A stretch of 64,000 nucleotides of DNA. Origin: an uncultured Spirochaetia bacterium. Its GTDB lineage: Bacteria; Oederibacteriota; PGYV01; Palsa-1178. A model generated the notes under the pieces. It ran no database searches, was not told the origin of the DNA, and saw only the letters and a program-made list of their open reading frames with translations. How positions within the stretch are numbered: position 1 is the first letter of the stretch; the number at the start of each line of letters is the position of its first letter. The stretch covers positions 34,823 through 98,822 of the forward strand of contig CAYUDX010000011.1 of NCBI GenBank assembly GCA_964443355.1, read 5' to 3'. Shown piece after piece: positions 24,964 through 54,714 of the stretch. Made by a program: the position numbers and the translations under genes.

Positions 24964-24975
24964 GGCATGCCTCCT

Positions 24976-28010: not shown

Positions 28011-28036
28011 TCTTGCTGATCATGTTAAAATTACAT

Positions 28037-28378
28037 TTATCCTATGGCTTCTTTTCCTTTTTCACCGGTTCTTATCCTGATGCATTCATCCATTGGCAGG
28101 ACAAAAATCTTGCCGTCGCCGGTCTCTCCGGTCTGTGCGCCCGCCATAATTGCTTTTATAGTAGGCTCAAGGAAATCATCGTTTACGCATATTTCAAGCC
28201 TTATTTTGCGCAGCAGGTTGCCCGACTCCCTGACGCCCCTGTAAACTTCAGTAATTCCTTTCTGCCTGCCGTGCCCCAAAACCTCATTAACGGTCAAAAG
28301 ATTTACATTAGCCTTGTACAGCTCCTGTTTAACCTCTTCCAGCTTGTGCGGCTGGATGATAGCGATTATCATTTTCAT
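28037..28378 (-). CDS. glnK: Nitrogen regulatory protein P-II (GlnK type), copy 2
   Basis: ~88% identical to the copy at 22650-22991. Confidence 0.9.
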
Positions 28379-28435
28379 TTAGATCCTCCTGAAAATATTT
28401 TTATTCATTATAGTGCTAAAAATCATCTGAGTAAA

Positions 28436-29773: not shown

Positions 29774-29946
29774 TGTGTTCCTCCCCGAATTTGTTATCCC
29801 TTTACTTCAAAGCTTATCTTAGAATCTACAATGAAATATTTTCAAAGCCCTTCCGACAGGGCACTGTGGACCTTCTGCTTTTGACGGCTTTTTAGCGGCC
29901 CCGGGGCGTCGGCACCCCGGGGCCAAGTCGGCGTCGAAGTAGAAGG

Positions 29947-29995
29947 GATCAAAGATGGATAATGGATATGAAATATCCATTATCCATCTTTGATC
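29947..29995. promoter_or_regulatory. 22-bp perfect inverted repeat with a 5-nt spacer, between glnN and amt2
   Basis: gatcaaagatggataatggata-tgaaa-tatccattatccatctttgatc; a GC-rich ggccccgggg hairpin lies ~40 nt away. Confidence 0.5.
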
Positions 29996-30105
29996 TTTGC
30001 TTTTGTAGGGGCGGCCTTATATGGCCGCCCGTTAAGCCCTATGCTTTAAAGAGCGAAAAAATCCCGGAGCGGTTCTTCACCGCCCCGGGAAACATTGGTA
30101 TAGGT

Positions 30106-32217: not shown

Positions 32218-32341
32218 AAATTTTACACTCCTTTCGGAATTTTAGGGGATATGAGTATAGATTACCGCAGTCCCTTCAACTTCGCTAACCGACTCAAACC
32301 CTCTGTTTGCCTGTAAACAGGCTTCTAGATGCTATCTAATA

Positions 32342-32357
32342 AGCAAAAAACATGCCA
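32342..32357 (-). promoter_or_regulatory. σ54 (-24/-12) promoter TGGCAT-N5-TTGCT upstream of glnN
   Basis: Minus-strand tggcatgttttttgct, GG-N10-GC spacing, ~115 nt before the glnN ATG. Confidence 0.55.
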
Positions 32358-32553
32358 GATAAAACGCTTGTGAAATATAGTGAAATCTATCTTTTGGTGG
32401 TCAAATTTGGCACAAAAAAAAGTTAGAAATGGTCAAAAGTTATACAAATTTTCAGTTTAATATTGACTTAAAGAAAGAGTATTATATAATAACCAGATGA
32501 TTAAATAATGACCAATTACGGCATGTTATATGCTTATAAATATGGAGGACAAG

Positions 32554-34653
32554 ATGAAAAAGAAAGAGGAAATATCTGCCGTTGCAGCCGCTTCACGGGG
32601 CGGTGATTACGAGAACAAGCTTAAAAAACTGAAACTTGTCCATTATATATCAATAGAAATGAATAAACCGCATTCCACAAAAGCGCTGCTAACATTGATA
32701 CTTGAACGTTGCCTTGAGCTCACAGGAGCAAAGACCGGCAGTGTCATGCTCATAAATGAGGCTGATAATCTCCTCGATATAGTCGCGTATAAGAATCTCC
32801 CGGCAAAAACAGCCGAAGCGACCAGGCTAAAGATCGGCGAAGGAATTACGGGATGGGTGGCAATGACCGGCAGCCCAAAGCTGGTCAACAACACAAGGCA
32901 GGACCCGATCTATATCAAGGTCAGGGAGGACCTATTATCCGAGCTTGCGGTCCCGATAAGGACTGAAAACAAGGTAATAGGCGTAATAAGCGTGGATTCG
33001 AACCGGGAAAACGCCTTTACAGAGGACGATCTGGACCTGTTGCTGATGGTGGCGGAACTTTCCGCTCAGATAATAACAAAGGACAAGATACAGGAAAAGT
33101 TGGGGTCCAAGATAAGCTCGCAGGAGATACTTATCGACACCTTCCATATAATAGAGGAAGAAGAGTCGCTCAACGACGTGTTTAACAAGGTAATGGAAGT
33201 ATTGAAGGACAAAATGAACATTTCCAGGGGCATGCTGGTGCTTTTTGACAAGGAGAGCCCTGATTCTCTGAAGGTTTACAGCGGCTATAAGATAAGCGAG
33301 GACTCCATTAAGAACGGGGTATATAAGATAGGCGAAGGCATAATTGGAAATGCGGTGCTAAAGGGGCAGACCATAGCCGTAGAGGACCTAACAAAAGAGC
33401 CGTTATTCCTAAACAGGCTGAAGATCCAGCGGCCGGAAAAAAACTCCATGATAGCCGCGCCCATCAAGGCGGGGCCGCGTGTCCTGGGCGTACTGTCCAT
33501 CGAAAAAATTTTTGAGGAAAAGGAATACTTTCAGGACGGTGTCCATACTATAACTATACTCGCGTCGCTGATCGCATACAGGGTAAGGAGCTTCCAGCGC
33601 CAGCAGGCCGAGACGCAGAAACTTATAACAGAAAACATCGAATTGCGCAAAGAACTGAAAAAGGACTACAGTTTCAGGAATATCGTCGGCAAGAACGAAC
33701 AGGTGCGGCGCATCATAGAGCAGATCAAAACGGTTTCCAATACCACCGCATCCGTGCTTATCACCGGGGAGACCGGCACCGGCAAGGAATTGATAGCCAA
33801 GATCGTCCATTTTTTGAGCGACAGGAGGGAAAATAAGTTCATTTCCGTCAACTGCGCGGCAATTCCTGAAAATCTCCTCGAATCAGAGTTGTTCGGATTC
33901 GAAAAAGGTGCATTTACCGGAGCGGTCGGCAACAAAAAGGGAAAATTCGAGCTGGCGGACAGGGGAACGCTGTTCCTCGACGAAATAGGAGAGATGCCTC
34001 TCCAGCTCCAGTCAAAGATACTCAGGGCCCTGCAGGAAAAAGAAATTGAGCCGCTGGGCTCCGAAAAATCCACGAAGATCGACATAAGGATAATCGCCGC
34101 CACCAATAAGGACCTGAAAAAGATGGTGGACGAGAAAAAATTCAGGGCGGACCTCTATTTCAGGCTTAATGTGATAACCGTGCACATGCCGGCTCTGCGT
34201 GAAAGGAAAGACGACCTGCCTTTGCTTGTGGATTTTTTCATAAAAAGGTATAATGAAGTATATGGTAAACAGGTGGCGGGCATTGACAGCTCCGTCGAGG
34301 ACATTTTTATGAATTATGAATGGCCGGGAAACATCAGGGAGCTTGAAAACGTCATTGAACGGGCCGTAATAATGGCCAAGGGCAGCCTTATAGACATATC
34401 GCTAATCCCGGACGCAATAAATCCGGCTAAAAACAAGGATGAAGGGTTTAATATCAAGAATTATATAAAGATTGAGTCCAGAAAGAAGGCCAGCGGCAGT
34501 ATATATAAGGAAGTGATAGGTGAGCTTGAAAAATGGCTTATCGAGGAAATGCTGGTGGATACCGGAAATAATAAGTTGAAAACCGCCCAAAAGCTTGGTA
34601 TTAATAGGAATACGCTGAAATCAAAGATGAAAGAGTACGGGATAATCCAATAA
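32554..34653 (+). CDS. σ54-dependent transcriptional activator (GAF–GAF–AAA+–HTH; NifA-like, no receiver domain)
   Basis: Two N-terminal GAF-like regions; AAA+ motifs GETGTGKELIAKIVH and ESELFGFEKGAFTGA (GAFTGA σ54-contact motif); C-terminal Fis-type HTH; GGAGG ribosome-binding site before the ATG at 32554. Confidence 0.85.
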   Translation: MKKKEEISAVAAASRGGDYENKLKKLKLVHYISIEMNKPHSTKALLTLILERCLELTGAKTGSVMLINEADNLLDIVAYKNLPAKTAEATRLKIGEGITGWVAMTGSPKLVNNTRQDPIYIKVREDLLSELAVPIRTENKVIGVISVDSNRENAFTEDDLDLLLMVAELSAQIITKDKIQEKLGSKISSQEILIDTFHIIEEEESLNDVFNKVMEVLKDKMNISRGMLVLFDKESPDSLKVYSGYKISEDSIKNGVYKIGEGIIGNAVLKGQTIAVEDLTKEPLFLNRLKIQRPEKNSMIAAPIKAGPRVLGVLSIEKIFEEKEYFQDGVHTITILASLIAYRVRSFQRQQAETQKLITENIELRKELKKDYSFRNIVGKNEQVRRIIEQIKTVSNTTASVLITGETGTGKELIAKIVHFLSDRRENKFISVNCAAIPENLLESELFGFEKGAFTGAVGNKKGKFELADRGTLFLDEIGEMPLQLQSKILRALQEKEIEPLGSEKSTKIDIRIIAATNKDLKKMVDEKKFRADLYFRLNVITVHMPALRERKDDLPLLVDFFIKRYNEVYGKQVAGIDSSVEDIFMNYEWPGNIRELENVIERAVIMAKGSLIDISLIPDAINPAKNKDEGFNIKNYIKIESRKKASGSIYKEVIGELEKWLIEEMLVDTGNNKLKTAQKLGINRNTLKSKMKEYGIIQ

Positions 34654-36177: not shown

Positions 36178-37092
36178 ATGAAAAAAATATTGATGATCGT
36201 TTTGCTGTGCGCACCGTCGGTCTTATTCGGGGTTTCTTCGGCACCGTTTTTAAGGTTTAATTACAATGCGGCGTCCCAGGGATCGGGAGGGGCGGGGTGC
36301 GCGCGATTCGGGGATATTTCGGGGATAAGCATAAACCCGGCTTCCACCAACGGCGCAATGAACGCGTCCGCGGCGTTTTCATACGGCGACATAGGCGAGT
36401 TCGATATAAGCGCCACGCAAACGAACGTGCTTGTGCCCGTGACCGACTACGGGAATTTTGGAGCGTCATTCATATATTCGAAGCAGGGAATCGACGACCC
36501 GGCGGATCCCGGTTCAAAAATCGACCGGAACGACAGGCTTGCCCTGTTGAATTATTCTTTCATGACCGATGATTCCATCGGGTTTGGCGCAAATTTAAAA
36601 TATGCGTGGTCCGATGTGGCGGGAACAACGGCTTCTTTCCTGGCGGCGGATATCGGCGCATTGTATTTATTCGACAAGGACCTTTCTTTTGGGCTGGCGG
36701 CAAGGGATATCGGGGCATTGGTCTCGTCGGGCGGGAACGGATACGGGTTAAAAGAGGAAGGACTTGATTCTTCGGTCATGGCAGGGGTAAATTACTACAT
36801 GCTATATGATAACGAGAACAAGTTATCGTTATCCATGGACCTTGGTTTTGCGATTCCTTTCGAGCGGGCCGTAATTTCAGAGGGGATGGAATACGGTTAT
36901 AACTCATTATTCATTATAAGGGCAGGGGACTACGAGAGCGTGAGCGGCGAGAATTATTTGAGCGTGGGGCTCGGGATGGACCACGATATCGCCGGAATTA
37001 ATTTTAAATTCGATTATACTTACAGCCCAAGGATTTCCGGTTCGTCCAATTTTAGCGACGATCAATTTATTACAATAACATCAATTTTTTAA
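36178..37092 (+). CDS. Outer-membrane β-barrel protein (distant PorV/FadL-like superfamily), hypothetical
   Basis: AGGAGG ribosome-binding site, signal peptide, G-rich N-terminal ...INPAST motif, β-rich, C-terminal ...ITSIF. Confidence 0.5.
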   Translation: MKKILMIVLLCAPSVLFGVSSAPFLRFNYNAASQGSGGAGCARFGDISGISINPASTNGAMNASAAFSYGDIGEFDISATQTNVLVPVTDYGNFGASFIYSKQGIDDPADPGSKIDRNDRLALLNYSFMTDDSIGFGANLKYAWSDVAGTTASFLAADIGALYLFDKDLSFGLAARDIGALVSSGGNGYGLKEEGLDSSVMAGVNYYMLYDNENKLSLSMDLGFAIPFERAVISEGMEYGYNSLFIIRAGDYESVSGENYLSVGLGMDHDIAGINFKFDYTYSPRISGSSNFSDDQFITITSIF

Positions 37093-37211: not shown

Positions 37212-37240
37212 TTGACAATTTGTTTGTTTCTGATTATAAT
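37212..37240 (+). promoter_or_regulatory. Perfect consensus σ70 promoter (TTGACA-N17-TATAAT), ~290 nt upstream of the hydrogenase–Nfn operon
   Basis: ttgaca 37212-37217, 17-nt spacer, tataat 37235-37240. Confidence 0.6.
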
Positions 37241-37529: not shown

Positions 37530-38045
37530 ATGCCCACAGTAAAAGTGTTGCCGGCGGACGTGAAAAAGTTGGACGAGATCATCAAAGCTTATGAAAACAA
37601 GCAGGGACGGGTTCTTGGCGTCCTGGAAGAGGCGCAGAAGATAAATAAGCACAATTTTTTGCCCGAGGATACCATCAATTATATCTCCTCGAAGCTCAAT
37701 GTGCCGTTGTCGCGGCTTTATAGCATAGTTACATTTTATTCTTTTTTTAACCTCAAACCGCAGGGGGATCACACCATAATCGTATGCAGGGGAACAGCCT
37801 GTCACACAAAAGGGTCAAAATCCCTTCTGGACGATGTCGGCGGCCAGATGGGCGGCACAAAGGAACTGGAAGGCGGCGAGCCGTCTTTCACAACGCCGGA
37901 CAACAAGTTTACAATAAGGACCGTGGCCTGTTTCGGGCAATGCGCGCTGGCGCCTGTTGTGTCAATAGACGGGGTCATCCATTCTAATGTAACATCGTCG
38001 CAGCTTCGCAGGCTCGTTCAAAAAACGCAGAAGGGGAGGAAATAG
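37530..38045 (+). CDS. NuoE/HndA-like [2Fe-2S] thioredoxin-like subunit (diaphorase/bifurcating hydrogenase gamma-type)
   Basis: CRGTACHTKG...CFGQCALAPV motif; AGGGAG ribosome-binding site. Confidence 0.85.
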   Translation: MPTVKVLPADVKKLDEIIKAYENKQGRVLGVLEEAQKINKHNFLPEDTINYISSKLNVPLSRLYSIVTFYSFFNLKPQGDHTIIVCRGTACHTKGSKSLLDDVGGQMGGTKELEGGEPSFTTPDNKFTIRTVACFGQCALAPVVSIDGVIHSNVTSSQLRRLVQKTQKGRK

Positions 38046-38047
38046 AA

Positions 38048-41000
38048 ATGAAAATAAACGATATAACCGCCCTGAACAATCTCCAGAAAAAATCGCTCAA
38101 GAAACTTCTGCCCGATAAACCGATGATAGCGGTCGGAATGGGCACCTGCGGAATCGGCAACGGCGCGGACGAATTATTTATGGCCATAGGCAAGGCCATC
38201 AAGACGAAAAAAGCCGATATTATTCTCAATACCGTCGGTTGTTTCGGCTTTTGCGCCAATGAGCCCCTTGTCAATGTTTACATTCCCGGGCAGCCGCTGG
38301 TAATACTCAATAAAGTCGCAGCAAAGGACGCAACATCCATAGTAGAAGCAGTTTCAAAGGGGAATATGCCTCTGAAAAAGGCCATGTGTAAAATAGAGCA
38401 ATGGGACTTTTTGACCTCTAAGATAGAATACGGCAAAGGCCTGCCGCAGGTCCCGGTATGGGACGAGATCCCGTTCTTTAAGGGGCAGAAAAAAATGGTC
38501 CTTCGCGACGCCGGGCTAATCAATCCCGAGGATATCGAGGAATACATCGCGGTCGGAGGTTATCAGGCGCTCCTGAAATCATTGACGACAATGAAGCCGG
38601 ACGGGGTGCTCGAGGAAATGAAAAAATCAAAGCTCCGCGGACGCGGGGGCGCGGGTTTCCCGGTCGGAAGGAAATGGGAGCTCATGAAGAACGTGAAAGG
38701 CGACCAGAAATACGTTGTCTGCAACGCCGACGAGGGCGATCCGGGCGCTTACATGAACAGGAATGAGATAGAAAGCGACCCGCACGCCCTTATAGAAGGC
38801 ATGATAATAGGCGCATATGTAATGGGCGCGTCAAAGGGGATAGTTTACATAAGGGCCGAATATCCGCTTGCAGTGGAACGACTGAAAAAAGCCATCAATC
38901 AGGCCAAAGACAACGGATTTTTGGGCGAGAATATCTTCGGTTCGGGTTTTAATTTCGACCTTGATTATGTGGAAGGAGCCGGGGCGTTCGTTTGCGGAGA
39001 GGAAACCGCTCTGATGGCCTCAATAGAAGGCAAGGCCGGCAGGTCGATGCCCAGGCCGCCTTTTCCGGCCCAGAAAGGCATCGATGGTAAGCCCACCAAC
39101 ATCAATAACGTCGAAACGTGGGAAAACGTTCCCCTTATTCTCAACCGTGGCGGTGATTTTTTCGCGCAGACGGGTACGGAAAATTCATCGGGCACAAAGG
39201 TTTTTTCGCTGGTCGGGAAGATAAGGAACACCGGCCTTGTGGAACTGCCGCTCGGCACCCCGCTTGAAAAGATAATATATGAGATGGGCGAAGGCGCCGG
39301 CAAAAACAAGAAGATACGCGCCGTCCAGACCGGAGGCCCTTCCGGCGGATGCATACCGGTGGAGAGTTTCAACACTCCGGTCGATTACGAGTCATTGAAC
39401 GCGCTGGGCGCTATAATGGGTTCCGGTGGAATGGTCGTCATGGACCAGGATAACTGCATGGTGGACGTCGCCAGGTATTTCGTGGAATTCACATCCTCCG
39501 AGTCGTGCGGCAAATGCACCTCGTGCAGGGAAGGGCTTTCACAGTCCATGGAAATATTGAACAGGATAACCAAAGGCAAGGGAACGCTCGAGGATATTGA
39601 AACCCTTGAGAAACTCGCGATGGTGATAAAGGATTCTTCGCTGTGCGGGCTCGGACAGACCAGTGCGAACCCGGTTCTTACTACACTGCGTTACTTCAGG
39701 GACGAATACAAGGCGCACATCATAGAAAAAAGATGCAAAGCAGGCGTCTGCGAAAACCTCTTCATGGCGCTTTGCGAGAATTCATGCCCCATGCATATGA
39801 ACATACCCGCATACCTGCAGATGCTCAAGGAAGGCAGGATAGAGGACGCCTTTGAATCAACCCTGCGGGACAATCCGCTTCCCGGGACGCTCGGCCGCAT
39901 ATGCCACTTTCACTGCAAAATGCGCTGCAGAAGGGATACGGTCGATGAATCTGTGGCGCAGGGCGAGATACACCGTTACCTCGCGGATACCATTTATAAG
40001 ATGGGAAAGGAAAAACAGCTTTATACAAGGCTGATAAAGGAAAAACTCCCGGCGACCGGAAAGAAGATCGCCATAATAGGCGCAGGCCCGGCAGGATTGA
40101 CCGCCGCGTATTACCTGGTGCGGCTCGGACACACGGTTACGGTCTATGATTCGCATCCCCTGGCAGGCGGCATTCTTTATTACGGTATCCCGGCCTACAG
40201 GTTGCCAAAAGACGTGCTGGCCAAGGAAATCGAGCTCATAAAAAAGCTGGGCGTAAAATTCGTCATGAACACGATGGTTGGGACGGACATTTCGTTCAAG
40301 ACCATAGCAAAGGAAAACGATTCGGTTATAATTTCCGTGGGGGCGCAGAAAGACGCGTCGCTTGACATACCTGGAGCGGAGCTGAAAGGAGTCCATCCTG
40401 GATATGAATTCCTTGAGGACCACGCGAAAGGCAAGAAACTAAGGATAGGAAAAAAGGTGGCCATAATCGGCGCGGGCAATGTATCGATAGACGCGGCAAG
40501 GACCGCGCTGAGGCTCGGCTCTGAGGTCACAATAGTTTACCGCAGGGACCGCAATGAAATGCCGGCAAACCTTCATGAGATAGAGGATGCCGAGGCTGAA
40601 AAGATAAATTTCCGCCTGATGTGCGGCCCGACCAGGATACTCGGGGACGCTAAAGGGAACGTCAAAGGCCTCGAGGTTGAAAAGATGAAATTCGGCTCCA
40701 TTGACAGGTCGGGAAGGCGCAAACCCGTGGGAACGGGGGCGTGCGAAATAATCGACTGCGACACTGTCATACTCGCGGTCGGCGAGAAAGTGGATTCAAG
40801 TTTTGCCAAAGACCTGGGTATAGAGACGAACAAGGATGCGACTATCAAGACCAATCCTTTCACATACAGGACTTCAAACAGTTCTTTTTACGCGATAGGC
40901 GACGCCGTGACCGGACCGGCGACCGCGGCAGAGGCCATGGGAATAGCGAAAACAACGGCCGAAGCTGTCGACTTTGACCTTATGAAGGAACACAGGTTCT

Positions 41001-41203
41001 CCAGACTTTACAGGAAATTCGAATACAAGAACGAGGTGCCGTTGAAACCCGAAGGCGGCAGGAACACGAGGCCGAAAAAACTTGCCGTAAAGGAAAGGGT
41101 AACGAATTTTCAGGAAATACTTTCCGGCTACACGGGCGAACAGGCTCTTCGCGAATCAGTCAGGTGCCTGAGGTGCGACGTGCGCCCGGGCAACGAAGAA
41201 TAG
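38048..41203 (+). CDS. Triple-fusion flavoprotein: N-terminal HndB-like thioredoxin-like [2Fe-2S] domain, NuoF/HydB-like NADH-binding FMN 51-kDa core, and a C-terminal GltD/NfnB-like NAD(P)H:FAD oxidoreductase domain
   Basis: GMGTCGIGNG...CFGFC; GRGGAGFPVG, CNADEGDPGA, SCGKCTSCREG (NuoF); then CxxxC Fe-S motifs plus IAIIGAGPAGLTAAYYL and VAIIGAGNVSIDAA (GltD-like); 1051 aa. Confidence 0.85.
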   Translation: MKINDITALNNLQKKSLKKLLPDKPMIAVGMGTCGIGNGADELFMAIGKAIKTKKADIILNTVGCFGFCANEPLVNVYIPGQPLVILNKVAAKDATSIVEAVSKGNMPLKKAMCKIEQWDFLTSKIEYGKGLPQVPVWDEIPFFKGQKKMVLRDAGLINPEDIEEYIAVGGYQALLKSLTTMKPDGVLEEMKKSKLRGRGGAGFPVGRKWELMKNVKGDQKYVVCNADEGDPGAYMNRNEIESDPHALIEGMIIGAYVMGASKGIVYIRAEYPLAVERLKKAINQAKDNGFLGENIFGSGFNFDLDYVEGAGAFVCGEETALMASIEGKAGRSMPRPPFPAQKGIDGKPTNINNVETWENVPLILNRGGDFFAQTGTENSSGTKVFSLVGKIRNTGLVELPLGTPLEKIIYEMGEGAGKNKKIRAVQTGGPSGGCIPVESFNTPVDYESLNALGAIMGSGGMVVMDQDNCMVDVARYFVEFTSSESCGKCTSCREGLSQSMEILNRITKGKGTLEDIETLEKLAMVIKDSSLCGLGQTSANPVLTTLRYFRDEYKAHIIEKRCKAGVCENLFMALCENSCPMHMNIPAYLQMLKEGRIEDAFESTLRDNPLPGTLGRICHFHCKMRCRRDTVDESVAQGEIHRYLADTIYKMGKEKQLYTRLIKEKLPATGKKIAIIGAGPAGLTAAYYLVRLGHTVTVYDSHPLAGGILYYGIPAYRLPKDVLAKEIELIKKLGVKFVMNTMVGTDISFKTIAKENDSVIISVGAQKDASLDIPGAELKGVHPGYEFLEDHAKGKKLRIGKKVAIIGAGNVSIDAARTALRLGSEVTIVYRRDRNEMPANLHEIEDAEAEKINFRLMCGPTRILGDAKGNVKGLEVEKMKFGSIDRSGRRKPVGTGACEIIDCDTVILAVGEKVDSSFAKDLGIETNKDATIKTNPFTYRTSNSSFYAIGDAVTGPATAAEAMGIAKTTAEAVDFDLMKEHRFSRLYRKFEYKNEVPLKPEGGRNTRPKKLAVKERVTNFQEILSGYTGEQALRESVRCLRCDVRPGNEE

Positions 41204-41221: not shown

Positions 41222-43000
41222 ATGGAGATAAAAAATCCGGTAAACGTAAAGATCAATAAAAATTCATACCAGGTCGAAAAAGGCTCCACGATACTGAAGG
41301 CATGCAGGGCGGCGGGAATAGAGATACCGACATTGTGTTTCCTCGAGGATGTTTCAAGCAACGCCTCATGCGGCATCTGCGTGGTAGAGGTAAAGAACGG
41401 CAAGTCGCTGATACGCTCGTGCATAACGGAAGTTTTTGAAAACATGGAAATATCAACGAATTCGGCAAGGGTAAGGGAAGCAAGGAAGATGAACCTCGAG
41501 CTTATCCTGGCAAACCACCCGAACGACTGCCTGAACTGCCTGCGCAACCAGAATTGCGAGCTGCAGAAGATGGCTTTTGAGCTCGGCATCAAGGAAACGC
41601 GTTTTGGAAGGACAAAAAAGCTCTCCGAGCTCGATGAAACATCGCCTTCCGTGGTAAGGGACCCGAACAAATGCATACTCTGCAAAAGATGCGTCAATGT
41701 GTGCGCGGATGTACAGACGGTTTACGCCATAGATATAACTCACAGGGGCATCAAAAGCAAAGTGACCCCGTATATGGACAAAGGGCTCGGCAACGTCGCG
41801 TGCACCAATTGCGGGCAGTGCGCCCTGGTGTGTCCGACCGGCGCCATCGTCGAAAAAGACAATACCGAAGAGGTCTGGAAAGAGCTCCAGGACCCGGAAA
41901 GAATAGTGCTTGTCCAGACGGCCCCGGCAATCAGGGTCGGCATAGGTGAAGCGATGGGCATGGAGCAGGGGGCCCTGGTAACCGGAAAAATGGTCTCAGC
42001 CCTGAGGAAACTCGGGTTTAACAAGGTATTCGACACGAATTTTACGGCCGACCTTACGATACTAGAGGAAGGGCACGAGCTTTTAAAAAGGCTCACAAAG
42101 GGCGGGACATTGCCCATGATAACATCCTGTTCGCCGGGCTGGATAAAATTTATCGAGCACTTTTTTCCGGAAGAAGTGGACCATCTCTCCACATGCAAAT
42201 CGCCGCAGCAGATGTTCGGCGCGGTAGCCAAGACCTATTACGCCGAAAAAATGCACATAGACCCGAGGAAAATATCGGTTGTATCCATAATGCCTTGCAC
42301 GGCGAAAAAGTATGAGGCAAAAAGGGGCGAGATGAAAGGCGCCTACGATTACTGGAAAGGCAGGATGAACCTTACCGAGGACGAAAAATTTTACGACGTT
42401 GATTACGTTCTCACAACAAGGGAACTTGCAAGGATGTTCACCGAGGCGGGAATACAGTTCGAATCCCTTCCCAAGGAAGAATTCGACAGCCCACTCGGGG
42501 CGTCCACCGGCGCGGCGGTGATATTCGGCGCCACAGGCGGAGTCATGGAAGCGGCGGTCAGGACGGTCTACGAAGTAGTTGTAGGCAAGCCCCTTGAAAA
42601 CCTTAATTTGATGCCGGTGAGGGGTTTTGAGGGAATAAGGGATGCCGAACTTGATCTGAACGGGACAAAGGTAAAAGTAGCTGTCGCGCACACCCTTAAA
42701 AACGCACGTAAACTTCTTGAGCAGATAGAAAAAGGCGAATCGCCCTATCATTTTATTGAGGTCATGACATGCCCCGGAGGATGCCTTGGCGGCGGCGGAC
42801 AGCCGATACCCACGACCTGGGACATCAGGAAGAAACGCGCGGAATCCATTTACGCCGAAGACAGCATGAAGGGGCTGCGCAAATCGCATGAGAACCCCGA
42901 GGTAAAGGCGCTTTATTCCGAGTTCCTGAAGGAGCCGCTCGGCCATCTTTCGCATGAGCTGCTCCATACGGAATACACAAAAAGAGGATATTTTATTTAA
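41222..43000 (+). CDS. hydA: [FeFe] hydrogenase large subunit, M3-type, with a non-canonical H-cluster L1 motif (TSCSPGW)
   Basis: N-terminal 2Fe-2S and HPNDC His-ligated 4Fe-4S domains, two ferredoxin-like CxxCxxCxxxCP motifs; L2 MPCTAKKYE; L3 EVMTCPGGCLGGGGQP; L1 reads ITSCSPGW (codons TCC TGT TCG CCG). Confidence 0.85.
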   Translation: MEIKNPVNVKINKNSYQVEKGSTILKACRAAGIEIPTLCFLEDVSSNASCGICVVEVKNGKSLIRSCITEVFENMEISTNSARVREARKMNLELILANHPNDCLNCLRNQNCELQKMAFELGIKETRFGRTKKLSELDETSPSVVRDPNKCILCKRCVNVCADVQTVYAIDITHRGIKSKVTPYMDKGLGNVACTNCGQCALVCPTGAIVEKDNTEEVWKELQDPERIVLVQTAPAIRVGIGEAMGMEQGALVTGKMVSALRKLGFNKVFDTNFTADLTILEEGHELLKRLTKGGTLPMITSCSPGWIKFIEHFFPEEVDHLSTCKSPQQMFGAVAKTYYAEKMHIDPRKISVVSIMPCTAKKYEAKRGEMKGAYDYWKGRMNLTEDEKFYDVDYVLTTRELARMFTEAGIQFESLPKEEFDSPLGASTGAAVIFGATGGVMEAAVRTVYEVVVGKPLENLNLMPVRGFEGIRDAELDLNGTKVKVAVAHTLKNARKLLEQIEKGESPYHFIEVMTCPGGCLGGGGQPIPTTWDIRKKRAESIYAEDSMKGLRKSHENPEVKALYSEFLKEPLGHLSHELLHTEYTKRGYFI

Positions 43001-43076: not shown

Positions 43077-43913
43077 ATGTATAAAATCACACTGAAGAAA
43101 CAGCTGACGAAGGACATCAAGCTCATGGGCGTACTCGCCCCGCATGTCGTGAAAAACGCGAAGGCCGGGAATTTTGTTATCGTGATACCAGGAGAGACCG
43201 GCGAAAGGGTCCCGCTTACCATTTATGATTGGGACTCAAAGAGCGGCGTTGTATATATCATCTTCCAGGAAGTGGGGGTTTCCACGGTAAAGCTGGGCAT
43301 GATGAACGAGGGCGATTCCGTGTATTCCATTGCGGGCCCGCTTGGCCGCCATTTCCACACCGAGAAATACGGCAATACGGTTGTCGTCGGCGGCGGCGTA
43401 GGAGTGCCGGCGATATTTCCGATAGCGAGGGCGCTTCGTTCCGAAGGCAACCGCGTGACATCCATCACGGGTTTCAGGAGCAGCGACCTTATCATCCTCG
43501 AAAAAGAAATGGGAACCGTTTCCGATAAGGTTATAACCGCCACGAACGACGGGTCAAGCGGCACAAAAGGGCTTGTGACCGATGCTCTGAAATCACTGCA
43601 TGATACCGGTGAAAAGATAGACCTGGTAGTGGCTGTGGGCCCCGTGGTCATGATGAAAGCCGTGTCCGAGCTTACAAAGCAGCTGGGGATAAAGACCATA
43701 GTTAGCCTGAACGCCCTCATGCTCGACGGGACAGGTATGTGCGGAGGCTGCAGGGTCACAATAGGCGGCAAGGTAAAATTCTCGTGCGTTGACGGCCCGG
43801 ATTTTGACGGACATCTTGTTAATTTCAACGAACTTACAAGCAGGCTCGCGACATTCAAGGCGGAAGAAAAAATATCGCTTGAGCACTGCAAAATACATCT
43901 GGCTGGCAGGTAA
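43077..43913 (+). CDS. nfnA: NfnA/SudB-like (PyrK-type) FAD/NAD-binding [2Fe-2S] subunit
   Basis: PyrK-like fold with a C-terminal CGGCRV...C motif; high similarity in pattern to NfnA (ferredoxin-NADP+ reductase α subunit). Confidence 0.8.
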   Translation: MYKITLKKQLTKDIKLMGVLAPHVVKNAKAGNFVIVIPGETGERVPLTIYDWDSKSGVVYIIFQEVGVSTVKLGMMNEGDSVYSIAGPLGRHFHTEKYGNTVVVGGGVGVPAIFPIARALRSEGNRVTSITGFRSSDLIILEKEMGTVSDKVITATNDGSSGTKGLVTDALKSLHDTGEKIDLVVAVGPVVMMKAVSELTKQLGIKTIVSLNALMLDGTGMCGGCRVTIGGKVKFSCVDGPDFDGHLVNFNELTSRLATFKAEEKISLEHCKIHLAGR

Positions 43914-43919
43914 ACAAAC

Positions 43920-45326
43920 ATGGCAAAAAAAGAACGCCTAAAAGTACGGCAGCAGGCGGCAAACGAAAGGATACGTAATTTCGAAGAAGTACCCTTCGGT
44001 TATGACGACAACGAGGCAAAACTCGAGGCGTCCCGCTGCCTTCAATGCAAGAACCCGACATGCATTCAGGGCTGTCCCGTCAATATAAACATAAAGGAAT
44101 TCATCAGTCAGATAGCCTCAGGGGACGTTGCCGGCGCTATCAAGACGATAAAAGAATCGAACAGCCTTCCGGCGGTCTGCGGAAGGGTATGCCCGCAGGA
44201 AACACAGTGCGAAGAAAAATGCGTCCTGTTAAAAACAGGGCAGGCGATCAATATCGGCGCTCTTGAGAGGTACGCAGCCGATTGGGAAGCCGCGAACATG
44301 GAAACAAAGGCACAGGTCATCACTCCGGTATTGGGCCGCGACGGCAAACAGATAAAAGTCGCGATAGCCGGCTCCGGACCGGCAGGACTGACCGTTGCCG
44401 GAGAACTTGCAAAGCTCGGTTATAAGGCGGTTATTTTTGAGGCCCTTCATCTGCCTGGAGGCGTGCTTGTATACGGCATTCCTGAATTCAGGCTGCCGAA
44501 GGCGATAGTGAAAAGGGAAGTCGATTACCTGAAAACACTCGGTGTGGAGATACAGACTGACGTACTTGTCGGGAAATCCTATACTATAGACGACCTGGTA
44601 CAGGATGGTTTTCAGGCTGTCTTTATAGGCGTAGGGGCCGGTACGCCGTCTTTTATGAACGTCCCGGGGGAAAATTTCAAAGGGGTTTATTCATCCAACG
44701 AGTTCCTTACGAGGATGAACCTTCTTAAAGCATATAAATTTCCGGAATACGACACGCCGGTCAAGCTTGGGAAAAAAGTCGCCGTGGTCGGGGCGGGAAA
44801 CGTGGCCATGGATTCGGCGCGTGTTTCCAGAAGGCTAAAGGGCGTGGAGGAGGTCCATATAATATACAGGCGTTCCGAGAAAGAAATGCCCGCCAGGCAC
44901 GAGGAGATCGAGCACGCTAAGGAAGAGGGGATAATACTGGACCTGCTTACCAATCCGGTTGAAATAATTTCCGATGAGAACGGTTTCGTATCAAAGATCA
45001 AATGCGTAAGGATGGAACTTTGCGAGCCCGACGCCTCGGGAAGATGCGGTACAAAGGCAATTCCGGGATCGGAATTCATCATGGAAGTCGACAATGTCAT
45101 CCCGGCGCTTGGGACAAAGGCCAATGAATTACTCACTACAAACGTCAAAGGCTTGAAATTAAACAAATGGGGTTACATAGAGGCAAACCCGGAGACCGGG
45201 GCTACTTCAATACCGGGAATATTCGCGGGCGGAGATATTTCAACGGGTTCGGCGACGGTTATAGCGGCAATGGGAGCCGGCAAAAAAGCCGCCGCAGCGA
45301 TCGACATTTATCTTAAGGCAAAGTAA
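43920..45326 (+). CDS. nfnB: NfnB/SudA/GltD-like NADPH-dependent oxidoreductase subunit (2×[4Fe-4S] plus FAD)
   Basis: CLQCKNPTCIQGCP...CGRVCPQETQCEEKC, IAGSGPAGLTVAGEL, VVGAGNVAMDSA; 7 nt after nfnA. Confidence 0.8.
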   Translation: MAKKERLKVRQQAANERIRNFEEVPFGYDDNEAKLEASRCLQCKNPTCIQGCPVNINIKEFISQIASGDVAGAIKTIKESNSLPAVCGRVCPQETQCEEKCVLLKTGQAINIGALERYAADWEAANMETKAQVITPVLGRDGKQIKVAIAGSGPAGLTVAGELAKLGYKAVIFEALHLPGGVLVYGIPEFRLPKAIVKREVDYLKTLGVEIQTDVLVGKSYTIDDLVQDGFQAVFIGVGAGTPSFMNVPGENFKGVYSSNEFLTRMNLLKAYKFPEYDTPVKLGKKVAVVGAGNVAMDSARVSRRLKGVEEVHIIYRRSEKEMPARHEEIEHAKEEGIILDLLTNPVEIISDENGFVSKIKCVRMELCEPDASGRCGTKAIPGSEFIMEVDNVIPALGTKANELLTTNVKGLKLNKWGYIEANPETGATSIPGIFAGGDISTGSATVIAAMGAGKKAAAAIDIYLKAK

Positions 45327-45647
45327 TTAATTAATATAGTTTGGGACAGGGACAAATCGCACTTTAACGTGTATCATATTGAAAAAGTTCAATAGATACC
45401 GACTATATCTTTATGCCCGGTATTGTCTAAAATCTTTTTTTCACAAGCAAATTGACAAATTGCTACCATTATGATATCATTTAAATGTTACCCGGTATTT
45501 TTCATTTTACTTTTAAAGAATATTATGGCGTTTTTTTTATCTTGACATAATTTGGGCTTCGCTGTATATTCTCACCAATTAAAGACTAACTTTTTACATA
45601 GTCACAGGAGAGTTCAGAGCCGCTCTCTGCCTTTAATATAAAAACAT

Positions 45648-45663: not shown

Positions 45664-45689
45664 ACTAAAATATACGGAGGTAAATGCAC

Positions 45690-46187
45690 ATGATGTTAGA
45701 AAAGCAAGAGATACAGCTTGAAAAACCGCTGCTTGATTTCATGGACCAATGGAAAGACAAGCCGGGCAATGAGATCATGGTACTGCACAAGATCCAGGAA
45801 ATATACGGGTATGTGCCGAGAAAAGTGGCAATGGAAGTGTCCAGGTTGATGGGCATACCGCTTGCGAAGATTTACGGCATTATTACATTTTATCATTTAT
45901 TCAAGCTTTCCAAACCCGGCAAGAACCAGATCCAGGTGTGCCTGGGTACGGCCTGCTATCTTAAAGGCAGCAATGACATTATACAGGAGATAGAGAATAT
46001 CCTGGGAGTCGCGGTAAATTCCACAAGCGACGATGGAATGTTTTCCCTCGAAATAGTCCGTTGCGTCGGTTGCTGCGGACTGGCTCCGGTGATGCTAGTC
46101 AACGGAAAAACCCACGGCAACGTGCTGAAAACAGACCTGCCGAAGATCCTTGGCGAATACAGCAAAAAAGAGGAGGCGCTTAAATAA
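45690..46187 (+). CDS. HndA/HydC/NuoE-like [2Fe-2S] subunit of a bifurcating [FeFe] hydrogenase
   Basis: CLGTACYLKG...CVGCCGLAPV; GGAGG ribosome-binding site. Confidence 0.85.
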   Translation: MMLEKQEIQLEKPLLDFMDQWKDKPGNEIMVLHKIQEIYGYVPRKVAMEVSRLMGIPLAKIYGIITFYHLFKLSKPGKNQIQVCLGTACYLKGSNDIIQEIENILGVAVNSTSDDGMFSLEIVRCVGCCGLAPVMLVNGKTHGNVLKTDLPKILGEYSKKEEALK

Positions 46188-46570
46188 TGGAAAAGATGAA
46201 AAAGGGCGACCTTGAAAAATTCAGGAAAAATTACAAGACAGAGCAAAAGGGAGAAGTAATGATCTCCATGGGCACCTGCGGGATAGCCGCCGGCGGCGAC
46301 GCTGTATATAAGATATTCGAGGACGAACTGAAAAGCAACGGGCTTGAGGGAAGCGTAAAGCTCAAGAAAACAGGCTGCCTGGGGATGTGCTTTTGCGAGC
46401 CCAATATGGTTGTAAAGATAAACGGCATGCCCGAGATACTTTACGGCAACGTCGACGAAAAAGCCGCCCACGCGATCGTGTCGGAACACATTATCAAGAA
46501 AAACATACTGAACAATTATGTTATATTCATGCCTTCGACGGATACCGGCAAGAATATATTCAAAGACTAG
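46187..46570 (+). CDS. HndB-like small thioredoxin-like [2Fe-2S] ferredoxin subunit
   Basis: MGTCGIAAGG...GCLGMCFCEP; homologous to the N-terminal domain of the 38048 fusion protein. Confidence 0.75.
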   Translation: MEKMKKGDLEKFRKNYKTEQKGEVMISMGTCGIAAGGDAVYKIFEDELKSNGLEGSVKLKKTGCLGMCFCEPNMVVKINGMPEILYGNVDEKAAHAIVSEHIIKKNILNNYVIFMPSTDTGKNIFKD

Positions 46571-46580
46571 GAGGCCTGCG

Positions 46581-48347
46581 ATGAATAAACAATATATTTT
46601 TGTCTGGGAGCCCGCCGCATCAAAGGACAAGCCCGTTTACAATACTTTCGTAAAGCTTGTCAATGAAAAGGGGCTGACGGATTCTTTTGAGGTTATAAGG
46701 AGCCCGTTCATAGGATTTACGACGGACGGGCCCATAGCCAGGGTTATGCCGGATGGCGTCATCTACACCAAATTCAAGGCTGAGGATGCGGACGACATTA
46801 TCAGCGCCCATATGAAGGGCGCAAGGCTAGATAAGTTCGTCCTTTCCTATGACAATAAGTTCCTGCCGATCAAGGAAAAGGATGCGACAAGCAAGCAATT
46901 TAAAATTGTCCTGAGGAACATTGGATACCTCGATCCGGAATCCATCGACGAGTACATAATGAGGGGCGGATACAAGGCCCTTGAAAAGGCGCTTTTTGAC
47001 CTCAATGAGGACAAGGTCATAGTGGAGATGAAGGCATCCGGGCTGCGCGGCAGGGGCGGCGCGGGATTCCCGACCGGCCTGAAATGGGAACTTACAAAAA
47101 AAGAAAAGAACGCGGAAAAATATGTGATATGCAATGCCGATGAAGGAGATCCGGGAGCTTATATGGACAGGAGCGTCCTTGAAGGCGACCCGCATTCCGT
47201 GATCGAGGGCATGATAATCGGCGGTTACGCGGTAGGTTGCACTCGCGGTTTTATTTACATAAGGGCGGAATATCCGCTGGCAATTGAAAGGCTTGAAAAA
47301 GCGCTGAAATCCGCAAGGGAATACGGGCTTCTCGGGAACAACATACTGGGTTCCAGTTTTTCCTTTGACATCGAGCTGCGCTGGGGCGCGGGCGCGTTCG
47401 TGTGCGGCGAAGAAACCGCCCTTATCGCGTCGATCGAGGGAAAAAGGGGAAATCCGAGGCCGCGGCCCCCATTCCCGTCGGTTTCCGGACTCTGGGGAAA
47501 ACCCACTTTTATCAATAATGTAGAGACATGGGCAAACGTTCCCGCAATAGTCGAAAGGGGCGGCGCCTGGTTCGCCTCTATCGGAACTGAAAAATCAAAG
47601 GGGACAAAAGTTTTTGCCGTGACCGGAAAGGTCACGAACCCCGGCCTCGTGGAAGTGCCCATGGGCACGACCATCAGGGAAATAGTTTATGACATTTGCG
47701 GAGGCATCCAGAACGGCAAGAAATTCAAGGCCGTGCAGACAGGCGGGCCGTCCGGAGGCGTCATACCGGAAAAATACCTGGATATGCCCATAGATTACGA
47801 ATCGCTACAATCGATAGGATCCATCATGGGATCAGGCGGCCTCATTGTAATGGATGAGGACGACTGCATGGTCGACGTCAACAAGTTCTACCTGCAGTTC
47901 TCGGTCGACGAATCGTGCGGAAAATGCTCGCCGTGCAGGATAGGCGGCAAGCAGATACTCGAATTGCTCGAAAAAATATCAAAAGGCAACGGCGACCCGG
48001 AGGACATAACGAAGATCAGGTCCATATCGATCGCAATGCAGAAGGCATCGCTTTGCGCCCTCGGCCAGACGACGCCAAACCCGGTCATTTCCGCCCTCAC
48101 TTATTTTGAGGACGAGTATATGGAGCACATTACGGACAAGAAATGCCTGACCGGGAAATGCCGCGACCTCGTTGAATACACGATAATCACGGAAAAATGC
48201 ATCGGCTGCGGGCTTTGCGCGATAAGGTGCCCCGTGAAATGCATCAGCGGAGAGAAACGCAAGCCCTATGTTATAGACAAAAAGCAGTGCATAAAATGCG
48301 GTGAATGCTACAACGTCTGCAAGTTCGACGCCGTAAAGAGAGGATGA
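46581..48347 (+). CDS. HndC/HydB/NuoF-like NAD(P)H-binding FMN flavoprotein subunit with a C-terminal 2×[4Fe-4S] ferredoxin domain
   Basis: GRGGAGFPTG, CNADEGDPGA, SCGKCSPCRIG; C-terminal CIGCGLCAIRCP...CIKCGECYNVC; AGGAGG ribosome-binding site. Confidence 0.9.
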   Translation: MNKQYIFVWEPAASKDKPVYNTFVKLVNEKGLTDSFEVIRSPFIGFTTDGPIARVMPDGVIYTKFKAEDADDIISAHMKGARLDKFVLSYDNKFLPIKEKDATSKQFKIVLRNIGYLDPESIDEYIMRGGYKALEKALFDLNEDKVIVEMKASGLRGRGGAGFPTGLKWELTKKEKNAEKYVICNADEGDPGAYMDRSVLEGDPHSVIEGMIIGGYAVGCTRGFIYIRAEYPLAIERLEKALKSAREYGLLGNNILGSSFSFDIELRWGAGAFVCGEETALIASIEGKRGNPRPRPPFPSVSGLWGKPTFINNVETWANVPAIVERGGAWFASIGTEKSKGTKVFAVTGKVTNPGLVEVPMGTTIREIVYDICGGIQNGKKFKAVQTGGPSGGVIPEKYLDMPIDYESLQSIGSIMGSGGLIVMDEDDCMVDVNKFYLQFSVDESCGKCSPCRIGGKQILELLEKISKGNGDPEDITKIRSISIAMQKASLCALGQTTPNPVISALTYFEDEYMEHITDKKCLTGKCRDLVEYTIITEKCIGCGLCAIRCPVKCISGEKRKPYVIDKKQCIKCGECYNVCKFDAVKRG

Positions 48348-48353
48348 CAAAAC

Positions 48354-50126
48354 ATGTATACAACAAAAACAACCGGTAAAATGATAAACATGAAGATAAA
48401 CGGAAAGGATTATTCGGTCGATTCAGGCATGACCATACTGGAGGCGGCAAGGCTTGCGCACGTCAAGATACCGACGCTCTGCAAGCACGACGACCTGCCC
48501 GCAACCGCGTCATGCGGCATTTGCGTCGTAAAGGCGAAAGGCAACAGAAAACTTCTGCGCGCCTGCTGCACCTACGTGGAACCCAACATGGAGATCACTA
48601 CGCACGACGGCGAGCTTTACCAGGTAAGGAAGAACGTCCTTGACCTGATCCTCTCGTCCCATCCTTTCGTATGCCTGACATGCCTCAGGAACGGGGATTG
48701 CGAACTGCAGACCCTGGCAGAGGAATTCGGCATAAGGTCCAGGCCATACAAGGAAATGCTCCAGGACATCAAAAAAGACACATCCACAAAAGCCGTTGTG
48801 CTTGACCCGATAAAATGCATCCATTGCGGGCGCTGCGTGGAAGTGTGCCAGAACATACAGAAGGTTTACGCCCTTGAATTTTTGGACAGGGGATTTGAAT
48901 CCAGGATAGCCCCGGCAGGAGACATTTCGCTATCCGATTCGCCGTGCATTAAATGCGGACAGTGCTCGGCGCATTGCCCGGTGGGCGCGCTTGTCGAGTT
49001 CAGCGAGATTCCGAAGGTCTGGGACGCGCTAGGAAATCCCGACGTTTACCCCATAGTTCAGATAGCGCCGGCTGTAAGGGTGGCAATAGGAGAGGCTTTC
49101 GGATTGCCTTCCGGCACGATCCTTACCAAGAAACTTTACGCCCTTTTCAGAAGACTCGGTTTTAAGGCTGTTTTTGACACAAATTTCGGGGCCGACCTGA
49201 CGATCATGGAAGAAGGCTCGGAACTGATTGAAAGGATCAAGACCGGCAACGGCGCAATGCCCCTTATCACAAGCTGCTGCCCGGCATGGGTTGATTTCCT
49301 TGAAAAATATTATCCGGACCTCATCGAACATTTTTCCACGGCCAAGTCGCCGCATGAAATGGTCGGAGCGCTGGCGAAAACATACTATGCGCAAAAGGCC
49401 GGGATAGACCCTTCAAAAATGTTCGTTGTCTCGGTAATGCCCTGCACTGCAAAGAAATACGAGGTATCAAGGACCGCGGACATGAGTTCGTCGGGTTTCC
49501 AGGATGTCGACGTATCCATCACGACGAGGGAACTTGTCAGGATGATAAAATCAAGCGGCATCAAGATGCTTGAACTCGATGATGAAGAGGCTGATTCCAT
49601 TCTGGGGACATACACCGGCGCCGGCACCATATTCGGCGCCACCGGAGGCGTCATGGAAGCCGCCATAAGGACCGCATACTTTTTGCTCACCAATAAGAAC
49701 CTTGACAACATCAATGTCGAAGTCGTCAGGGGCTTGACAGGGGTAAAAAGCGGCGTCATAGACGCCGGCGGGACAAAGATACGAGTGGCGGTCGCCCACG
49801 GCACGGGGAATGTGCGCGCCGTCATGGATGAATTGCGCGCCGCGAAAAAGGCGGGAGCGCCTATGCCGTACGACTTTATAGAAGTCATGGCATGCGAAGG
49901 CGGATGCATAGCAGGCGGAGGACAGCCATACCGTGTCACCAATGCCGTGAGAAAAACAAGGACCGAAGGCATATACAAGGACGACGTGCAGTCAAAACTC
50001 AGGCAGTCTCATGAAAATCCGGACGTACAGAAACTTTACAAGGATTTCCTCGAGAAACCGCTTTCACACAAGGCGCATAAGCTGCTCCATAACCATTACT
50101 CGGCAAGGCCGATCTATTACAAATAG
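48354..50126 (+). CDS. hydA: [FeFe] hydrogenase catalytic subunit HydA/HndD, M3-type, canonical H-cluster motifs
   Basis: L1 TSCCPAW, L2 MPCTAKKYE, L3 EVMACEGGCIAGGGQP; N-terminal 2Fe-2S/4Fe-4S accessory domains. Confidence 0.95.
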   Translation: MYTTKTTGKMINMKINGKDYSVDSGMTILEAARLAHVKIPTLCKHDDLPATASCGICVVKAKGNRKLLRACCTYVEPNMEITTHDGELYQVRKNVLDLILSSHPFVCLTCLRNGDCELQTLAEEFGIRSRPYKEMLQDIKKDTSTKAVVLDPIKCIHCGRCVEVCQNIQKVYALEFLDRGFESRIAPAGDISLSDSPCIKCGQCSAHCPVGALVEFSEIPKVWDALGNPDVYPIVQIAPAVRVAIGEAFGLPSGTILTKKLYALFRRLGFKAVFDTNFGADLTIMEEGSELIERIKTGNGAMPLITSCCPAWVDFLEKYYPDLIEHFSTAKSPHEMVGALAKTYYAQKAGIDPSKMFVVSVMPCTAKKYEVSRTADMSSSGFQDVDVSITTRELVRMIKSSGIKMLELDDEEADSILGTYTGAGTIFGATGGVMEAAIRTAYFLLTNKNLDNINVEVVRGLTGVKSGVIDAGGTKIRVAVAHGTGNVRAVMDELRAAKKAGAPMPYDFIEVMACEGGCIAGGGQPYRVTNAVRKTRTEGIYKDDVQSKLRQSHENPDVQKLYKDFLEKPLSHKAHKLLHNHYSARPIYYK

Positions 50127-50198: not shown

Positions 50199-50304
50199 AA
50201 AAACCTTTTAAATCCTACTAAAATGGTAATATTTAATTTGAAATTTCCTTGAAAATCGGGTATAATTTGATGTATAATATATCAATTAATAAAACAAAAA
50301 GGTC

Positions 50305-51783: not shown

Positions 51784-51814
51784 CCGTAATCCATCAACAT
51801 GAATGGGGCCAATA

Positions 51815-54438: not shown

Positions 54439-54714
54439 ACAGGCATTCTGTATGGGCCGCCCTATGTGGCGGCCCGGCATTGGTTTTGCTGTGTCGGTAT
54501 TGTGGCCTTGAAACTGTTGTTGCGGGACAGGCGGAATTTTTTTACGGCACTGCCGTCCGAAGCTTTGCTTGAGGCAGATCGGAACAAAGACCTGGAAATT
54601 AAAGTTTTACCTTTGCTTAATTTACAAAGTAGTTTTTGTTGGACGTTTGGCCGAAAAAAGTTCCGCCTGTCCCGCGCAGGTTTCCTGATGATAAAAGGAT
54701 CATGGTGAATTACA

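Follow-up and report, generated by a model that had tools for sequence, protein, structure and literature searches.

Introduction

The best solved-structure match of the protein considered here is HydA1 of the bifurcating HydABC(D) complex of Acetobacterium woodii (PDB 7q4v, 7q4w, 8a5e), in which the H-cluster cubane has a serine, Ser301, where Thermoanaerobacter kivui has a cysteine ligand, Cys299. The A. woodii complex is reported to resemble the Cys-type T. kivui enzyme both in infrared signatures and in catalytic activities (PMC10021017). Here we analyze a gene, hydA1 (41222-43000, + strand), that encodes an M3-type [FeFe]-hydrogenase catalytic subunit of 592 aa with a serine at the same position. 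The gene is located in a 64,000-nucleotide stretch of DNA from an uncultured Spirochaetia bacterium (contig CAYUDX010000011.1), which we refer to as the window and to which all coordinates apply.

In the canonical group A3 (Bfu) complexes of T. kivui and Thermotoga maritima (8a6t, 7p5h), as in a second operon of the window, which encodes the paralogue HydA2, a HydA subunit is combined with a NuoF-like HydB subunit and a NuoE-like HydC subunit. The HydA subunits of these systems have the same F-domain clusters and the same H-domain fold as HydA1; unlike HydA1, however, they have the L1 motif TSCCPxW and four cysteine ligands. Their HydB subunits keep a 2x[4Fe-4S] domain at the C-terminus, to which a part in reducing ferredoxin has been ascribed, and A. 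woodii HydB is likewise a normal subunit of 599 aa with a C-terminal ferredoxin-like domain; in contrast, the HydB encoded directly upstream of HydA1 is fused to a GltD/NfnB-like module (HydB::GltD).

Sporomusa ovata StnABC (Stn; 8oh5) and NfnABC (9n5u, 9bov) resemble the window complex in having a NuoE/NuoF-like core and a GltD/NfnB-like NADPH-flavin adenine dinucleotide (FAD) module with two [4Fe-4S] clusters. In Stn and NfnABC the module is inserted in a large NuoG/HydA-like subunit that has an inactive catalytic domain, and the ferredoxin-like domain is still present at the C-terminus of StnB. In the window, by contrast, it is the NuoF-like subunit that has the module, in place of its own C-terminus, and the H-cluster motifs of the large subunit, HydA1, are complete but for the Cys-to-Ser replacement; the window complex thus falls outside the Stn/NfnABC type. 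The same chemical change, an engineered Cys-to-Ser substitution at [4Fe-4S]H ligands, has reportedly been introduced by mutagenesis of C. reinhardtii HydA1; unlike those artificial mutants, which have a Cys-adapted background, the serine of the window is natural, conserved, and accompanied by co-varying neighbors. The L1 sequence of HydA1, TSCSPGW, is also present in two trimeric [FeFe] hydrogenases of Melainabacteria ACD20 described in a 2013 genome study; both of these proteins, unlike HydA1, in which L3 is intact, are reported with a Cys-to-Ile change in L3 (PMC3787301).

Results

HydA1 has serine at a ligand position of the H-cluster cubane

HydA1 matches Fe_hyd_lg_C (PF02906; 6e-100), PF02256 (Fe_hyd_SSU), PF13510, PF10588, and Fer4 domains, scores 531 bits against TIGR02512 (cutoff 406), and scores 883.2 bits against NF040763 ('NADH-dependent [FeFe] hydrogenase, group A6'; cutoff 765), a model that HydA2 also passes (798.4). 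Its architecture, comprising an H-domain, a small-subunit-like C-terminus, and an N-terminal F-domain with a [2Fe-2S] cluster, a His-ligated [4Fe-4S] cluster, and 2x[4Fe-4S], is that of an M3-type group A enzyme. No PAS or other signaling domain was detected in HydA1 by Pfam, and HydA1, with its proton pathway intact, differs from sensory HydS proteins (groups C/D).

In the hydA1 frame, positions 42122-42142 (+ strand) read ACA TCC TGT TCG CCG GGC TGG, that is, T S C S P G W. The reading of L1 in the initial annotation, with serine in place of the second cysteine, is therefore borne out by the sequence, as is its statement that two base changes separate the serine codon, TCG, from TGY; the codon itself is at 42131-42133, slightly downstream of the interval 42115-42125 that had been proposed for inspection of reads. 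Alignment with the enzyme CpI of Clostridium pasteurianum (HydA1 fragment 3-146 to CpI 225-368; phmmer) runs for 144 residues around the motif without a gap, and places Cys303 at the proton-relay cysteine (CpI C299) and Ser304 at the [4Fe-4S]H ligand cysteine (CpI C300), as had been proposed. The accompanying claim of a gapless alignment holds for CpI and within the motif, but not for HydA2, against which one single-residue gap occurs 8 residues 5' of L1. HydA2 itself has TSCCPAW, in agreement with the initial annotation.

Apart from the ligand position, the active-site motifs of HydA1 are canonical. HydA1 departs from the L1 pattern TSCCPxW in having Ser304 instead of the ligand cysteine, with the relay cysteine, Cys303, retained. 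L2 (MPCTAKKYE; 42290-42316, + strand), with Met357, Cys359, and Lys362 corresponding to CpI M353, C355, and K358, and L3 (EVMTCPGGCLGGGGQP; 42758-42805, + strand), with Cys517 and Cys521 corresponding to CpI C499 and C503, fit the patterns MPCxxKxxE and ExMxCxxGCxxGGGQP; the earlier description of the relay cysteine, L2, and L3 as intact was correct. HydA1 residues E283, E286, R290, C303, S323, Q329, M357, and K362 correspond to CpI E279, E282, R286, C299, S319, Q325, M353, and K358, and all of the CpI catalytic residues examined are kept except S232 (Ala236 in HydA1) and C300. Met515 is retained together with the cubane cysteines, Lys362, Met357, and the proton pathway.

The A. woodii subunit (7q4v_A; E = 6e-188; 50% identity) resembles HydA1 in its M3 architecture, its identical L1 context (LPMITSCSPGWIKFIE), its serine at the position of CpI Cys300, and its intact L2, L3, and proton pathway, and Ser304 aligns gaplessly with Ser301. 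Because the active A. woodii enzyme has the same deviation in L1, TSCSPGW does not exclude membership in the functional family. The A. woodii Ser301, the Melainabacteria TSCSPGW, and the match to NF040763 indicate that the serine feature is already documented; HydA1 of the window is a new member of a Ser-type lineage.

Unlike A. woodii HydA1, and also in comparison with T. kivui HydA and HydA2, HydA1 has a 14-residue insertion after L2 (GAYDYWKGRMNLTE; residues ~372-385; 42335-42376). The insertion is common to the subclade that contains the window sequence (L005-L012 and L016 among the related loci described below), and a similar insertion arises separately in Cys-type Smithella paralogues.

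Serine is conserved across a large set of related HydA proteins

The hydA1 gene shows 0 nucleotide differences over 1779 nt in four metagenome assemblies from four different samples, all of which have TCG. In a collection of 5.8 billion proteins, the best matches of HydA1 (72-100% identity) combine TSCSPGW with L2 and L3 motifs that are intact, in 120 of 120 cases. At greater distance, the seven nearest full-length 50%-identity representatives (61-48% identity) are xSCSPxW, and Cys forms start only beyond these.

We scanned one genome per species, which yielded 80 genomic loci (51-84% identity) with 92 HydA genes. The loci span Spirochaetota, many Bacillota, Bacteroidota, Fibrobacterota, Omnitrophota, KSB1, Sumerlaeota, Syntrophales, and one Hadarchaeota bin, and the ligand position is serine in 84 of the 92 genes and cysteine in 8. 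Ser-type genes are present, among others, at L042, L075, L018, L019, and L027, which belong to relatives of the biochemically studied Syntrophomonas wolfei Hyd1A and Syntrophus aciditrophicus HydA. In a neighbor-joining tree of 96 sequences and 571 columns, comprising the HydA genes of the loci, the window paralogues, and two PDB sequences, all Ser forms fall, together with A. woodii HydA1 (7q4v), in one clade, in which a single Cys form (L037) is nested and to which T. kivui HydA (TSCCPSW) is sister. Thus, at the sampling density of this tree, TSCSP does define a clade, as the initial annotation had suggested checking.

The 84 serine genes use six serine codons (AGC, 34; AGT, 18; TCG, 13; TCC, 7; TCA, 7; TCT, 5), which divide into 52 AGY and 32 TCN codons and require at least 11 codon-class changes on the tree. 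In 64 of the 84 genes the serine codon is one mutation from a cysteine codon, yet cysteine is nearly absent inside the clade, which argues for purifying selection for serine. We conclude that the serine has been inherited within a large HydA lineage, of which A. woodii HydA1 is a member, and that, judged from these sequences, it appears to be maintained by selection.

In an alignment of 101 Ser-type sequences, Cys303, Cys359, Cys517, Cys521, Lys362, Met357, Met515, and the proton pathway are invariant (101/101). Four positions near the ligand motifs differ between Ser-type and Cys-type sequences: position 300 (Ile vs. Phe), position 306 (Gly in 95% vs. Ala in 60%), and position 308 (Ile vs. 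Val), all within residues 300-308 (42119-42145), and position 516 (42767-42769; non-Ala vs. Ala in 86%). Seven Ser-type sequences have an extra cysteine at position 516, where HydA1 of the window has threonine. The co-variation of positions 300, 306, 308, and 516 with the Ser/Cys state could reflect second-shell adaptation or shared ancestry.

The HydB subunit encoded with HydA1 is fused to a GltD/NfnB-like module

The gene directly upstream of hydA1 encodes the HydB::GltD fusion (1051 aa; 38048-41203, + strand), a NuoF/HydB core followed by a GltD/NfnB-like module. The core has Complex1_51K and NADH_4Fe-4S domains, a flavin mononucleotide (FMN)/NADH site, and a [4Fe-4S] cluster at Cys487/490/493/533, and residues 26-573 match HydB/NfnB/HoxF chains with E-values of 1e-160 to 1e-203. 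The module, which starts at residue 561 (Fer4_20, Pyr_redox_2), has two [4Fe-4S] clusters, an FAD motif, and the NADPH-type motifs GAGNVS and YRRDR. For each half of the fusion, Stn and NfnABC rank among the top structural-sequence matches. The fusion lacks the ferredoxin-like 2x[4Fe-4S] domain with which HydB proteins usually end, the proposed ferredoxin branch; HydB2 of the second operon has it. In the N-terminal region, where HydB of bifurcating enzymes has a thioredoxin-like [2Fe-2S] domain and where the fusion has no Pfam match, Cys34, Cys65, Cys69, and Cys114 are present, and the second cysteine of the usual C-x4-C is seemingly Gly39.

The fusion is not confined to the window. Its best 120 matches (its own entry and 119 homologues) are mostly ~1050 aa in length, with two shorter, at 945 and 988 aa, and an in-frame fusion is present in 55 of the 80 related loci. 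The HydA gene directly downstream of the fusion is Ser-type in 55 of 55 cases; 20 further Ser-type HydA genes follow an unfused HydB, and Cys-type paralogues at the same loci pair with unfused HydB. Because the NADPH-FAD module takes the place of the ferredoxin-like domain, the complex, to judge from its motifs, most likely couples H2 both to NAD(H), through the FMN, and to NADP(H), through the FAD, possibly without ferredoxin.

A keyword search of a literature collection that covers few subscription journals returned no specific description or biochemical characterization of a NuoF/HydB-GltD fusion with a true HydA, an absence that is weak evidence. The only trace encountered is the HydDB rule for subgroup A2, 'GltD but not NuoF', which implies that NuoF and GltD neighbors had been seen and were assigned to A3.

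Operon and genomic neighborhood

The hydA1 gene is the third of five in the order hydC1, hydB::gltD, hydA1, nfnA-like, nfnB-like, with gaps of 2, 18, 76, and 6 nt. The first gene, hydC1 (37530-38045, + strand), encodes a NuoE/HydC-like thioredoxin-like [2Fe-2S] subunit of 171 aa (PF01257, 1.7e-39; Cys86/91/134/138), so that HydA1 is encoded together with a NuoE-like HydC and a NuoF-like HydB with an FMN/NAD(H) site, the gene set of Bfu/group A3 enzymes. A candidate sigma-70-like promoter, TTGACA-17-TATAAT (37212-37240, + strand), which matches the consensus at 12 of 12 positions and is proposed from that match, lies ~290 nt upstream of hydC1; + strand matches inside genes were counted as chance. 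The second hyd operon and hydG are likewise preceded by near-perfect sigma-70 matches (45452-45570 and 50238-50278, respectively).

Since genes for sigma-54 activators lie beside several related operons, a sigma-54 promoter was sought upstream of hydC1; none was found there. In those distant relatives, sigma-54 activator genes are present just upstream of hydC-hydB-hydA at four loci with the fusion (L009, L026, L036, L076) and at two with unfused HydB (L052, L068), which suggests that this type of hydrogenase is under regulation in some lineages.

The two genes downstream of hydA1 encode an NfnA-like protein, related to the DHOD-B electron-transfer subunit and predicted to bind FAD and NAD (278 aa; 43077-43913, + strand; NF004862, 1.4e-112), which starts 76 nt past hydA1, and an NfnB/GltD-like protein (468 aa; 43920-45326, + strand; TIGR01316, 554 bits, cutoff 472). 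Terminator calling on the + strand returned no candidate site in the gap between hydA1 and the nfnA-like gene, and the pair (43077-45326) is apparently part of the hydA1 transcription unit. We considered the pair as a conserved part of the system and rejected this, since it is present at one other locus only (L030) and is absent from the 84%-identical loci L005 and L006.

The second, canonical hydrogenase operon (45684-50126, + strand) comprises hydC2 (45684-46187), a gene for a small thioredoxin-like [2Fe-2S] protein of 127 aa (46187-46570), hydB2 (46518-48347), with a normal C-terminal 2x[4Fe-4S] domain, and hydA2 (48354-50126). The 127-aa protein, whose gene lies between hydC2 and hydB2 and overlaps the longest hydB2 frame, is possibly a fourth subunit, similar to HndB or HydD.

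Genes for H-cluster maturation follow on the same strand (50305-55752), ~7 kb downstream of hydA1: hydG (50305-51783), hydF (53224-54438), and hydE (54715-55752). Between hydG and hydF is a gene for aspartate ammonia-lyase (51803-53227, + strand), in an order that is the same at L005 and L006, and the matches of the four genes, to TIGR03955, NF008909, TIGR03918, and TIGR03956, are all above curated cutoffs; a 2024 paper ties ammonia-lyases to synthesis of the dithiomethylamine bridge of the H-cluster (PMC11736057).

Further upstream in the window is a nitrogen-assimilation island (16577-34653) with genes for the large and small subunits of glutamate synthase, two ammonium transporters, type III glutamine synthetase, and a GAF-domain sigma-54 activator. 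Sigma-54 -24/-12 matches on the minus strand at 24434-24449 (exact), 27810-27825, and 32342-32357 precede island genes (amt, glutamine synthetase). Genes for PorV/PorQ-family outer-membrane proteins (15122-16366 and 36178-37092) and an open reading frame of 1586 aa without an NCBIfam match (10365-15125) hint at a host that bears type IX secretion (FCB-like).

Discussion

We consider it highly probable that HydA1 works as the catalytic subunit of an [FeFe] hydrogenase, that its [4Fe-4S]H cluster is held by Ser304 and three cysteines, and that this arrangement is an inherited, seemingly selected trait of its lineage. A Ser-ligated H-cluster, as raised in the initial annotation, is likely, given that the cryo-electron microscopy (cryo-EM) study of A. 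woodii HydABC describes one for the homologous Ser301 (PMC10021017); serine ligation and activity are thus carried over to HydA1 by analogy. What the present analysis shows directly is the sequence of HydA1, how far it is conserved, its place in the clade, and the domain architecture, whereas its activity and nucleotide specificity are what we infer for it. The cubane would be ligated by the Ser304 oxygen, Cys359, Cys517, and the bridging Cys521; the [2Fe]H site would be where H2 is split or formed; protons would pass via Cys303, Ser323, Glu283, Glu286, and Arg290; and electrons leaving the Ser-ligated cubane would reach the HydB/HydC flavin module by way of the F-domain clusters. In this HydB, an NADPH-FAD (GltD/NfnB-like) module takes the place of the ferredoxin-like C-terminus.

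Several points weigh against this assignment. HydA1 is only 50% identical to the characterized A. woodii enzyme, whose cryo-EM map is of limited resolution and whose ligand assignment is taken from the text of the paper (PMC10021017). The neighboring maturase genes could serve canonical HydA2 alone, and coupling to NADP(H) is proposed from motifs and homology. The tree of 96 sequences is a simple neighbor-joining tree without support values, and a sparser neighbor-joining tree, of 50%-identity representatives, is star-like, with Ser forms scattered among Cys forms and 12 Fitch changes. We set the sparser tree aside as unresolved and used the denser tree of genomic loci instead; because the sparser tree interleaves Ser and Cys forms, strict monophyly at depth is not established, and recurrent Cys/Ser switching at depth is possible.

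Four other explanations for the serine can be set against this evidence. That TCG is a sequencing or assembly error for a TGY (Cys) codon has next to no chance of being correct: the identity of the gene in four independent assemblies and the presence of serine in each of the 120 close homologues and, through six different codons, in 84 genes of the related loci refute it in practice, and the initial annotation was right to doubt it. That HydA1 is a non-catalytic electron-transfer or sensory scaffold for the NADPH module, comparable to the HydA/NuoG-like subunit of Stn (8oh5) or NfnABC (9n5u), is very improbable. Such a role would fit the presence of a GltD/NfnB-like module in HydB::GltD with Stn and NfnABC among its best structural matches, and the canonical HydABC operon next door could supply all hydrogenase activity. 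However, the large subunit of Stn is described with a catalytically inactive domain and with no mention of an H-cluster (PMC10482914), whereas HydA1 keeps catalytic residues and a proton pathway; these positions are invariant in the Ser-type sequences, no sensory domain is present, and Stn-type scaffolds look different, which together make a dead or sensory protein unlikely. The version of this alternative in the initial annotation, a redox or sensory partner, accordingly finds little room beside the retained catalytic residues, the downstream hydG, hydF, and hydE genes, and the reported activity of the Ser-type A. woodii enzyme (PMC10021017).

The two remaining explanations concern what the serine does. 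Ser304 might not be a ligand, and another residue or water might complete the cubane, a candidate being Cys325 (STCKSP), which is enriched in Ser-type sequences (96/101) as compared with Cys-type sequences (51/91); the extra cysteine at position 516 in seven Ser-type sequences points the same way. We regard this as very unlikely. The A. woodii structural paper names Ser301 as the serine ligand of cluster A1 (PMC10021017); Cys325 is missing from five Ser-type sequences and is also frequent in canonical Cys-type enzymes, including those of D. desulfuricans and HDCR HydA2, and is therefore not a specific compensation for serine; and the window protein has threonine, not cysteine, at position 516. 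Alternatively, the catalytic, Ser-ligated enzyme may owe its serine to adaptive tuning of the [4Fe-4S]H potential, or of proton-coupled reduction, for NAD(P)H-linked partners, rather than to a near-neutral variation. Serinate ligation usually moves Fe-S potentials by tens of millivolts. Serine is kept across a deep clade although cysteine is one mutation away for most codons, all 55 HydA genes beside HydB::GltD fusions are Ser-type while same-locus Cys-type paralogues pair with unfused HydB, and positions 300, 306, 308, and 516 co-vary with the ligand. Against this, in the one published comparison the A. woodii enzyme showed no effect of serine on infrared signature or activity (PMC10021017), the co-variation and the 55/55 pairing may be mere shared ancestry, and Ser-type HydA proteins are also found, in 20 cases, beside ordinary and short HydB. 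Tuning is therefore a tentative possibility. More doubtful still is the stronger proposal that serine is an adaptive retuning obligatory in a widespread, uncharacterized class of [FeFe] hydrogenases in which an NfnB-like NADPH-FAD module replaces the ferredoxin-binding domain of HydB.

For annotation, the results mean that TSCSPxW is not a sign of a broken or pseudo-hydrogenase, and that screens requiring TSCCP would wrongly drop many hydrogenases that are probably active and that come from a broad range of phyla. To enzymologists, the Ser lineage offers a natural experiment in oxygen ligation of the H-cluster cubane, in which potential, catalytic bias, or O2 sensitivity may or may not be shifted. 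The HydB::GltD architecture is a more interesting and less explored lead than the serine ligand, and its 55/55 pairing with Ser-type HydA among the sampled loci suggests a multimeric type of hydrogenase that is linked to NADP(H). If the proposed class is real, its members could couple H2 to both NADH and NADPH without ferredoxin; at low H2 partial pressure, for instance, NADH and NADPH could be confurcated to H2, and in the window the adjacent NfnAB-like pair could feed NADPH from reduced ferredoxin.

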